DNA of 5,541 bases from IMG/VR virus record IMGVR_UViG_2703718801_000012, positions 1 to 5,541 of that record. One strand, written 5' to 3'. Positions 3,001-5,541 of this stretch are shown here, one piece after another. Made by a program: the position numbers. This DNA is from a virus (lineage: Duplodnaviria > Heunggongvirae > Uroviricota > Caudoviricetes). Each line of letters begins with the position of its first letter. Positions within the stretch are counted from its first letter, which is position 1.

Positions 3001-5541
3001 CTGGCAAACTCGTAGAGCAAAATGCTGTTACGCAAACTTCGTTACAGGGTCATCCTGCAATACAAAAAATACACAATATTTAGAAAACTAATAGTGCCAT
3101 GTGCGATTTTTAAGATTTTGTTATTAATTGTGGCCGCACCTTCCTTTCTGTGTACTTTCCGTATAGCTCAGAGGATTCTGGGTACAAAAAAACCCCGCTC
3201 ATCGACGGGGTCGGCTGCGTGGCAATGCAACCACTCTTATCATGATATGCAGATTTTTACGTACGTAAAATACTTTTTAGCACCTCGTTCAATCGGGAGT
3301 GGAATCCGGGGTTCCGCGACGCTTCACACCACCTCGGGCGGAGATTTTCGGGGCTTTTTTTTGCCAATTAGCGATGTATTCAGTCGGCGTTGTTTCGTGC
3401 TTCTGCATGAACGGCACCAGCTTTGCGGCCTTTTCTTATTCCCGCAAATTCTGAATCCGAATTTTTTCTCAATTTCATCATTAGATATAGCGACTTTCCC
3501 GCAGAGGGGGCAAGTATGCTTTTTATCACAACCACTTTTCAATAACCAAATTAACCGGCGGATTAATGGCTTGATATCATAGATGTTTCGCAAATCATCG
3601 TCATGATCGATTTGCGCGTAACTTATCTTCTGTAACATATCTTTCTCCTCCAGACACACCAGGACTCCTTGTATGGCGTCCCGGGATGTACGCATTCTGG
3701 TGGCAAAAAGAGATATTGATGGTAATGTTTGCGAATCTACGTCCTGGTGAAATGAAACAAAATTAGCCAGCAGAAGTAATTCTGAATAGTTTAACTTTAA
3801 CCTGTTCTGGTATTTCAAAAGCTCTTTGAGGATAACGAACCAGTCAATGCTTAAAATATCATCATTCCACAGAGACAGATCATTGTCTTCCGCCTCCAGA
3901 AAATCTTCAATGTCCATTTTGCCCCCTGTTCATTGTTGTATATATGTTATTAACAGGTAGATAACTCTTACGTCCCTGTACTATAAAGTAAACAGCATAA
4001 CGCTCACAAATTGACACACTTCACATAGTGAACGGCAAACGCCTCCTGTCAGAGGCGTTGCACATATCGGTCCATTTCCAGTCTGACACCAAGTAACATT
4101 AACATCCCTTCAACCACACCCTCCGCTTTCTGTAATTTTTTACCGATAGTTCCATCAGAGCATCCATGCTTACGTGCCAGCGCCATGAATGTCTCCCCCA
4201 ACACGTAATAATCAACCAGCAAGTCATGCAGATCGCTGTTGTTCCTGTTAAGGCGAGCCATACACCCGCATATAATCATCGCGTCATCGTCACAACACTG
4301 TGGACGTGATTTTACTTTTTCGGGGATCAGTCCCTTAAATCCGGCAGCAATGGGCGACCATGTAACATCCTCATAGTTATTTGCCGCCCATGCACCCCAG
4401 CGCTCAAGAACCTGCCGGATATCACGCATCAGTATCTTTACCCCATCCGCGATGAACCATAAGGACGCCATTGACGACGGCGTGCTTTTTCGCATCTTTA
4501 TCATCAATGTATTTTCTGACTGTGGCACGATTGCAGTTCAGTATTCTGGCGACTTCTGTCTGATTTCCCCTGGTGCAGATCAGTAATTCAGGTATCGTTT
4601 GAATTTTAGCATTCATCAAATGTTCTCCAGTTCAGTGATTTTTATCCCCACTCTACCGCCAGGCACTTTCACGCCGCGAATTACGCGAATGTCATCGAAT
4701 TGCTCGTCGTCTTCCGCAAATCCGGCGTAGATAAGAGAGTCGAGTAAACCTTTCAGGATGTTATCGAGGTCGCGACGGCGGGAATCTGGTGGTTCAGCAA
4801 TAATTGTGATGCGAAGTCGTGATTTAGTGAAAATGTCTAATCTGAGTTGCCGGATGATTTGCTGTACGTCTTTTCGGTATTTCTGGCCTTTATCGCTGAT
4901 GTAGTACTGGCTTCCCCGTCTTCGCCAGTAGGTATTCACCGTCGGCGGCCAGGGAAGCACAAACTCATATTCATTCATGACTTAATTTTCCCCTCCTTCA
5001 GCAGTATCGCCTGCGTCCTGATCACGCCTTCCAGGTGGTAAAGTCTGGCGTCGTTGTTGTCGAGAATGCGAGTACGGCGATCGATTTCATTATGGCAGTC
5101 ACTACAGGCCCATGCAGCCAACAGGTCATCTGGCTTCATTCCCGTTCCGCAAATTCCAGCTATTCGGTAATGCGCCAAAACTGAACCGCCCCGGTTTTCC
5201 TGGAGAGTGTTTTATCTGTGAACTCAGGCTGCCAGATCATCGTTTCTGATGGAAGCATAATAAGCTTTTTCTGCTTCTGCCGGAGGGATATGACCCAGCC
5301 TTCCCAGCAATCGTCGATTGTTATACCAGTCCACCCACGTGAGTGTGGCCAGTTCCACTTCTGCACGGTTTTTCCAGCTCTTACGGTGTATTACCTCCGC
5401 TTTGTAAAGACCATTGATGCTCTCCGCCATCGCGTTGTCATACGAGTCACCTGTACTCCCTGTTGATGCCAGCAGTTTTGCTTCTTTTAGTCGCTCCGTA
5501 TAGGCCAGTGATACATACTGAGAGCCTTTATCGCTGTGATG

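Follow-up and report, generated by a model that had tools for sequence, protein, structure and literature searches.

Which gene occupies the short interval between rusA and the late antiterminator gene Q in a Shiga toxin-converting prophage, and is its product concerned with Q itself? We examined this in a stretch of 5,541 nucleotides (positions 1 to 5,541 of IMG/VR record IMGVR_UViG_2703718801_000012, hereafter the window), which shows the late-regulation region of a lambdoid Stx1-converting prophage in reverse complement. In minus-strand reading order the window starts with a fragment of an IS3-family transposase (5184-5541), and this element interrupts the phage backbone at 5184, upstream of the genes considered here. 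It is followed, all on the minus strand, by a 5'-truncated ybcO-type nuclease gene (4975..5178), the Holliday-junction resolvase gene rusA (4616..4978; PF05866, E 2.6e-16; phrog_34, E 8.6e-55), the small ORF in question (4422..4616), a Q antiterminator gene of the PF06530 type (4049..4429, 126 aa; E 5.1e-52, with profile positions 1-118 of 118 covered), an ORF of 197 aa (3324..3917), stx1A (1802..2758) and stx1B (1523..1792). Over the 1.2 kb around the small ORF (window 4000-5183), identity to Shigella phages POCJ13 and 75/02 Stx is 99.4-99.8%.

The small ORF is almost certainly the ninH gene of this prophage, and its product acts most likely as NinH of phage lambda does. The sequence-only reading could not match the ORF to a known family, a statement that did not survive profile and BLAST searches. 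The predicted protein matched Pfam PF06322 (Phage_NinH) with an E-value of 2.4e-30 and 104.7 bits (gathering cut-off 29.8), residues 1-58 corresponding to profile positions 1-58 of 60, and it matched phrog_268 with an E-value of 4.9e-27. The annotated NinH proteins of Shigella phages 75/02 Stx (YP_009226862) and POCJ13 have exactly the same sequence (100% identity), and lambda NinH (NP_040640, 68 aa) shows 63% identity to it over 60 aa in an ungapped alignment (E 4e-30). Weak matches to Pfam HTH_8 and HTH_17 were also detected over residues 15-49. The hallmarks of Phage_NinH are all present, namely the length of 64 aa, the helix-turn-helix (HTH) at approximately residues 17-38, and the C-terminal H-x3-VNGVLMV-H/K motif. 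None of the evidence collected contradicted PF06322 membership. The gene has already been named, annotated and, through its lambda orthologue, partly characterized biochemically (PMC7166090), and it is not new.

The position of the gene agrees with this assignment. The order on the minus strand is ybcO-rusA-ninH-Q, which places ninH at the distal end of the nin region, after a junction resolvase gene (encoding NinG or RusA, depending on the phage) and before the late regulator. Phages 75/02 Stx, Lahn1, P13803, PhiR12_3, WGPS9, mEp235, HK97, P22 and lambda have this order or an equivalent one. The complete rusA-ninH-Q-ORF197-stx1AB context is common to the window and 75/02 Stx at 97-98% nucleotide identity. 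This ninH is the last small gene of the nin region, which is delayed-early and driven by pR.

The reading frame runs from an ATG at 4616-4614 to a TGA at 4424-4422 (64 codons, minus strand). The ORF listing begins the frame one codon earlier, at a TTG (4619); the ATG is the ninH start in all homologues and in the RefSeq annotation. The translation start region (4614..4628, minus strand), as read from the sequence, consists of a Shine-Dalgarno element GGAG at 4628-4625, a spacer of 8 nt to the ATG, and the pentanucleotide TGATG, in which the rusA stop codon TGA (4618-4616) and the ninH ATG overlap by one base. At the other end of the gene, the Q start codon (ATG, 4429-4427) lies 8 nt ahead of the end of ninH, and the two genes share the 8-nt sequence ATGCGTGA (4422..4429, minus strand). 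The annotation of Shigella phage 75/02 Stx has both overlaps, of 1 nt and 8 nt, in the same form, and the 8-nt ninH/Q overlap is also annotated in Lahn1, P13803, PhiR12_3 and WGPS9. The same kind of overlap occurs at every adjacent gene pair in the nin regions of HK97, mEp235 and lambda. Overlapping stop and start codons are the normal gene packing of the nin region, and the 1-nt and 8-nt overlaps probably give translational coupling. The earlier proposal of a small, HTH-containing ORF of 64 aa at 4422-4616, joined to both of its neighbours, was confirmed with regard to location, HTH and overlaps.

Two other features of the same DNA were considered and set aside. A GTG-started ORF in the Q frame (4049..4528), which overlaps ninH, was rejected as the real Q because the PF06530 profile match starts with the first residue of the 126-aa version; DLP12 QuuD and Lahn1 Q begin at the same MRDI as the 126-aa Q. 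A terminator-like hairpin inside ninH (minus strand 4483..4465) was taken as a chance occurrence, since its T-tail is poor and four such sites were found in the region, compared with an expectation of 2.4 from shuffled sequence.

A spurious overlap with the 5' region of Q, for which the sequence-only reading had allowed, was rejected: the Q profile starts at the ATG at 4429, and the ORF itself has the strong PF06322 match and is under purifying selection. A tblastn search with the ninH product gave matches in 486 phage records, in 484 of them over 80% or more of the protein; most of the records belong to Stx-converting, lambda-like, HK97-like and P22-like phages of Escherichia, Shigella and Salmonella. 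A broken frame in close relatives had been named as evidence against the gene, and the frame was found intact in 10 of the 10 relatives that were fetched with their flanks. The dN/dS ratio was 0.22-0.38 (Nei-Gojobori method) against the five relatives with unsaturated dS. In more distant relatives the synonymous sites are saturated (pS > 0.8), and the proteins are still 54-66% identical. The ninH gene is under purifying selection. Eleven residues (N18, E21, A23, R24, R30, T32, H45, V48, N49, L52 and G57) were invariant in the ten-sequence alignment; H55 and R56 were kept in the lambda and Stx-phage subgroup of the same ten homologues.

Lambda NinH, the single characterized member of the family, is a homodimer that binds duplex DNA and bends it by about 41 degrees (Chakraborti et al., 2020, Biochem J 477:1345, PMC7166090). 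According to the same work, the protein favours a degenerate G-N13-C site similar to the Fis site, and its overexpression is toxic to an extent that scales with DNA binding (PMC7166090). Substitutions N18A, R30A, T32A and K35A reduced or abolished DNA binding, R56A abolished it, and H45A and H55A pushed the protein towards the monomer (PMC7166090). N18, R30, T32, R34, K35, H45, H55 and R56 are all kept at the same positions in the window's NinH. The Fis-like HTH is encoded by codons 11-37 (4506..4586, minus strand), delimited by the phmmer alignment to Fis residues 66-92 and with residue roles taken from the lambda mutagenesis (PMC7166090); it carries N18, Q19, T20, N29, R30, T32, R34 and K35, the DNA-contact residues of Fis type. 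Codons 44-56 (4449..4487, minus strand) encode a predicted C-terminal beta region that includes H45, H55 and R56, and by analogy with lambda NinH (PMC7166090) this region would serve in dimerization and DNA binding.

The two proteins are alike in the position of the HTH, in all mutationally defined residues, and in the location of their genes at the 3' end of the nin region after the resolvase gene. They differ in several respects. The window's NinH is 4 aa shorter and differs in the last 8 residues (C-terminal tails GKDTDA vs. SERDALLRKN in lambda NinH). At position 29 it has an Asn, equivalent to Fis N84, whereas lambda NinH has a Ser, which is the sole Fis DNA-contact residue not conserved in the lambda protein (PMC7166090). 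The gene upstream of ninH is rusA in the window and ninG in lambda; downstream, ninH is followed by a PF06530-type Q in the window, in contrast to ninI and then a PF03589-type Q in lambda. Transfer of function from lambda NinH at 63% identity suggests, but does not by itself establish, the same activity for the window's protein.

We examined the relation to Fis by sequence and profile comparison. In a phmmer search against all PDB sequences, Fis came out on top, with NinH residues 11-37 aligned to Fis 66-92 (E 0.03-0.05). With a profile built from ten NinH sequences, the top nine PDB matches were all Fis (best E 0.0065), and hhalign of the NinH profile against Fis gave a probability of 94.5% over 26 columns. 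Fis N73, T75, N84, R85, T87, R89 and K90 align to NinH N18, T20, N29, R30, T32, R34 and K35, and the HTH pattern TRGNQT...NR.T.RK is common to NinH and residues 70-90 of E. coli Fis (PDB 3IV5, 1ETY). All eight listed DNA-contact positions of Fis have the same residue in the window's NinH, N84 included. The likeness is confined to about 26-28 residues of the HTH and is statistically modest (E 0.0065-0.05). The thresholds of the Fis families were not reached (NF001659, 20.8 bits vs. a cut-off of 99; HTH_8, 18.1 vs. 22), and no counterpart of Fis residues 1-60, which form the beta-hairpin arm and the helix A/B dimer core, was present, the alignment covering only Fis residues ∼64-93. In place of the N-terminal beta-hairpin arm and helix A of Fis, NinH has the C-terminal beta region, so the NinH dimer must be built otherwise than the Fis dimer. 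The window's NinH is predicted from these comparisons to work like Fis while standing outside the Fis family. No solved NinH structure was found among the PDB sequences by the phmmer and profile searches, and a single-sequence AlphaFold2 model of NinH (pLDDT 59.6, with implausible strands) was unusable.

The slot between rusA and Q had been likened to that of ylcG in the DLP12 prophage, and this comparison is correct as to position: ylcG likewise lies between rusA and Q (quuD) in DLP12. YlcG (46 aa, b4509) shares with NinH the location between rusA and a PF06530-type Q and the overlap with the rusA stop codon, but ylcG ends 85 bp from quuD, whereas the window's ninH overlaps Q. The DNA of the window's Q is 80% identical to quuD. 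Homology of the window's ORF to YlcG was rejected, the BLASTP, Pfam and tblastn results all being negative: YlcG and NinH gave no BLASTP alignment at E ≤ 100, YlcG matched no Pfam family and showed no HTH, and tblastn detected no ninH remnant in DLP12 DNA (the best match, E 0.62, lay elsewhere in the locus). The likeness of YlcG and NinH is positional only, and the two genes are alternatives for one mosaic slot.

The window's ninH is mildly notable in one respect only: the allele is recombinant, as judged from segment identities in the DNA alignment. In nucleotides 1-30 of the gene, identity is 87% to HK97 and 57% to Lahn1. In nucleotides 76-195 together with the first ∼30 nt of Q it is about 97% to Lahn1 (96.7% for nt 76-195), and in nt 76-168 it is 53% to HK97. 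The first ∼20 codons belong to the HK97/mEp235 type, unlike those of the 933W/Lahn1-type ninH, whose product shows 69-77% amino acid identity to the window's NinH. The extents of the megablast matches agree, the HK97-like rusA-ybcO module ending within ninH. The approximate intragenic junction can be placed at nt 31-60 of ninH (4557..4586, minus strand), with the crossover at the beginning of the stretch encoding the conserved HTH sequence RGNQTEVAR or shortly before it. The allele joins a 5' part like that of HK97/mEp235 to a 3' part like that of the Stx phages Lahn1 and 933W. Such a mosaic is ordinary lambdoid mosaicism, in which a conserved coding stretch is the exchange point.

Taking lambda NinH as the guide, the 64-aa NinH would most likely form a homodimer through its C-terminal beta region, each subunit contributing an N-terminal, three-helix, Fis-like HTH. 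The dimer would bind duplex DNA with a loose G-N13-C preference and bend it, as a phage-encoded nucleoid-associated protein. The gene would be expressed once the prophage is induced, on a single polycistronic mRNA that also carries rusA and Q. The expression timing of lambda NinH has been reported (PMC7166090). In EHEC EDL933 treated with ciprofloxacin, ninH of phage 933W ranked with the most strongly induced phage genes (PMC11125564), an observation that is consistent with delayed-early expression and goes no further. The role of the protein in the phage life cycle is probably accessory; NinH may replace or compete with host Fis in excision and integration or in host transcription. Plaques of a lambda ninH deletion mutant are reported to be small, according to a citation in PMC7166090.

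The sequence-only reading had gone further and suggested that a small DNA-binding protein made together with Q could modulate late gene expression. In its full form, NinH would be a dedicated co-regulator of Q-dependent late transcription, binding at or near pR'/qut/tR' and tuning the late genes and Stx. The part of this claim that concerns co-expression stands, since ninH lies directly upstream of Q with the 8-nt overlap in the window and in all of the PF06530-Q Stx phages examined. Promoters can be regulated by Fis-type proteins (PMC7166090), and a promoter-like candidate for pR' was found just downstream of Q (4009..3980, minus strand). A role specific to Q, however, finds no support in the distribution of the gene. 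Conservation across Q-family variants had been put forward as a check, and ninH turned out not to be tied to one Q family: it is found beside two unrelated ones, PF06530 (the window, Lahn1, PhiR12_3) and PF03589 (lambda, HK97, P22). In lambda, ninI lies between ninH and Q, in P22 a gap of 156 bp precedes the Q homologue, and in Salmonella phage Sergei no Q adjoins ninH at all. Conversely, in DLP12 a Q of the same type functions next to the unrelated ylcG in the absence of ninH. In lambda, moreover, ninH is listed as non-essential and Q as essential (PMC10695390).

We also scanned the window for NinH sites with the consensus duplex taken from the supplement of PMC7166090 (core GATCAAGAATTGTGC). 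The scan gave no window match to this consensus at ≤3 mismatches (0.24 expected) and three matches at ≤5 mismatches, compared with 3.9 expected, none of them near the candidate pR'. There was no enrichment in the window at 4-6 mismatches; given that the consensus is loose and comes from work on the lambda protein, this is a weak negative result. With two Q families, the intervening ninI and 156-bp gap, and no site near pR', we consider a dedicated function of NinH in Q-dependent late transcription very unlikely, and we keep to the reading of NinH as an accessory, Fis-like DNA-binding protein of lambda NinH type.

The 8-nt overlap ATGCGTGA between the end of ninH and the start of Q points to another possible connection, in which ninH would act mainly in cis: its translation would bring ribosomes to the Q start and so determine how much Q is made and when the late genes and Stx are expressed, the protein itself being secondary. 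The Shine-Dalgarno of Q is weak, the sole element of this kind being a GGGGT 10 nt upstream, and the 3' end of ninH and the 5' end of Q are nearly invariant (the 96.7% nucleotide identity to Lahn1 over nt 76-195) despite the exchanged 5' part of ninH. The amino acid sequence of NinH is itself under purifying selection, however, with the dN/dS values of 0.22-0.38 given above, and the DNA-contact residues show little or no variation among phages with saturated synonymous sites, which is unexpected for an ORF that merely delivers ribosomes. In P22, ninH is uncoupled from the Q homologue. Translational coupling and a function of the protein are in any case compatible with each other. A predominantly cis-acting ninH is, in our estimate, extremely improbable, and the gene is best regarded as encoding a functional NinH whose translation is probably coupled to that of its neighbours.

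The importance of the present result is small beyond the correct annotation of ninH in this prophage, and the window gives no hint of an answer other than that proposed for lambda NinH. Its only wider relevance comes from the facts that the role of NinH is undefined even in lambda (PMC7166090) and that ninH here stands directly upstream of the Q gene that controls Shiga-toxin expression. One speculation, which we think unlikely to be right, is that in the PF06530-Q Stx phages the last two thirds of ninH and the Q start form a single, nearly invariant and translationally fused unit, and that NinH specifically affects the timing or level of Q and thereby of Shiga toxin. If this were true, NinH could exert its effect either by coupled translation or by binding DNA in the manner of Fis within the Q-pR'-stx region, and a competition between Fis and NinH that depends on the state of the host could feed into toxin output.

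Comparison with phages HK97 and mEp235 and with the Stx phage Lahn1 shows that the ninH allele at 4422-4616 is a chimera. The first ∼30-60 nt at the 5' end of the gene are of the HK97/mEp235 type, and this part runs on unbroken into the rusA-ybcO module. The 3' ∼120 nt of ninH and the first part of Q share ∼97% identity with Lahn1. The mosaic junction inside the gene was placed at about 4557-4586 and falls at the conserved HTH-coding stretch.

At the other end of the module, likeness of the window to phages POCJ13 and 75/02 Stx ends at 5183. From 5184 to the window's end (5541), the sequence is that of an IS3-family transposase and shares 99.4% identity with an IS present in multiple copies in E. 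coli O157:H7 and O145. This IS3-family element has cut short the ybcO-type (HNH/DUF1364) nuclease gene, of which only profile positions 29-91 of 92 remain.

The Q frame stays open for 33 codons 5' of the true ATG (4429), up to a GTG at 4528, and a mechanical ORF call therefore gave an extended minus-strand ORF of 159 aa (4049-4528) that overlaps ninH. GTG 4528 was rejected as the Q start, since the Pfam match and homologues place the real start at 4429.

A candidate pR' late promoter, identified by consensus match only, is the promoter-like site TTGTGA-18-TATAGT (3980-4009, minus strand), detected 40 bp 3' of the Q stop. Between Q/pR' and stx1A lies a minus-strand ORF of 197 aa (3324-3917), which belongs to phrog_34160, carries a DnaD_N-like domain at its N-terminus (PF21984, E 7e-8) and is annotated in 75/02 Stx simply as hypothetical. 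The late transcript 5' of the toxin genes is an odd site for a protein similar to replication-initiation or loader factors. Just 3' of stx1B, a minus-strand match to the sRNA STnc100 (Rfam RF02076, 1231-1444) spans the full model length and scored 195 bits vs. a gathering score of 47.

A NinH family member with 54% identity is encoded at 1495-1683 of the segment analyzed from Salmonella phage Sergei, a Sashavirus. Its gene is followed on the 3' side by a 46-aa ORF, then a terminator, and then a prohead assembly gene. No antiterminator Q was found beside ninH in the flanks of this locus. Because Sergei ninH occurs without a Q neighbor, we concluded that the NinH family is not limited to the classic nin-Q arrangement.
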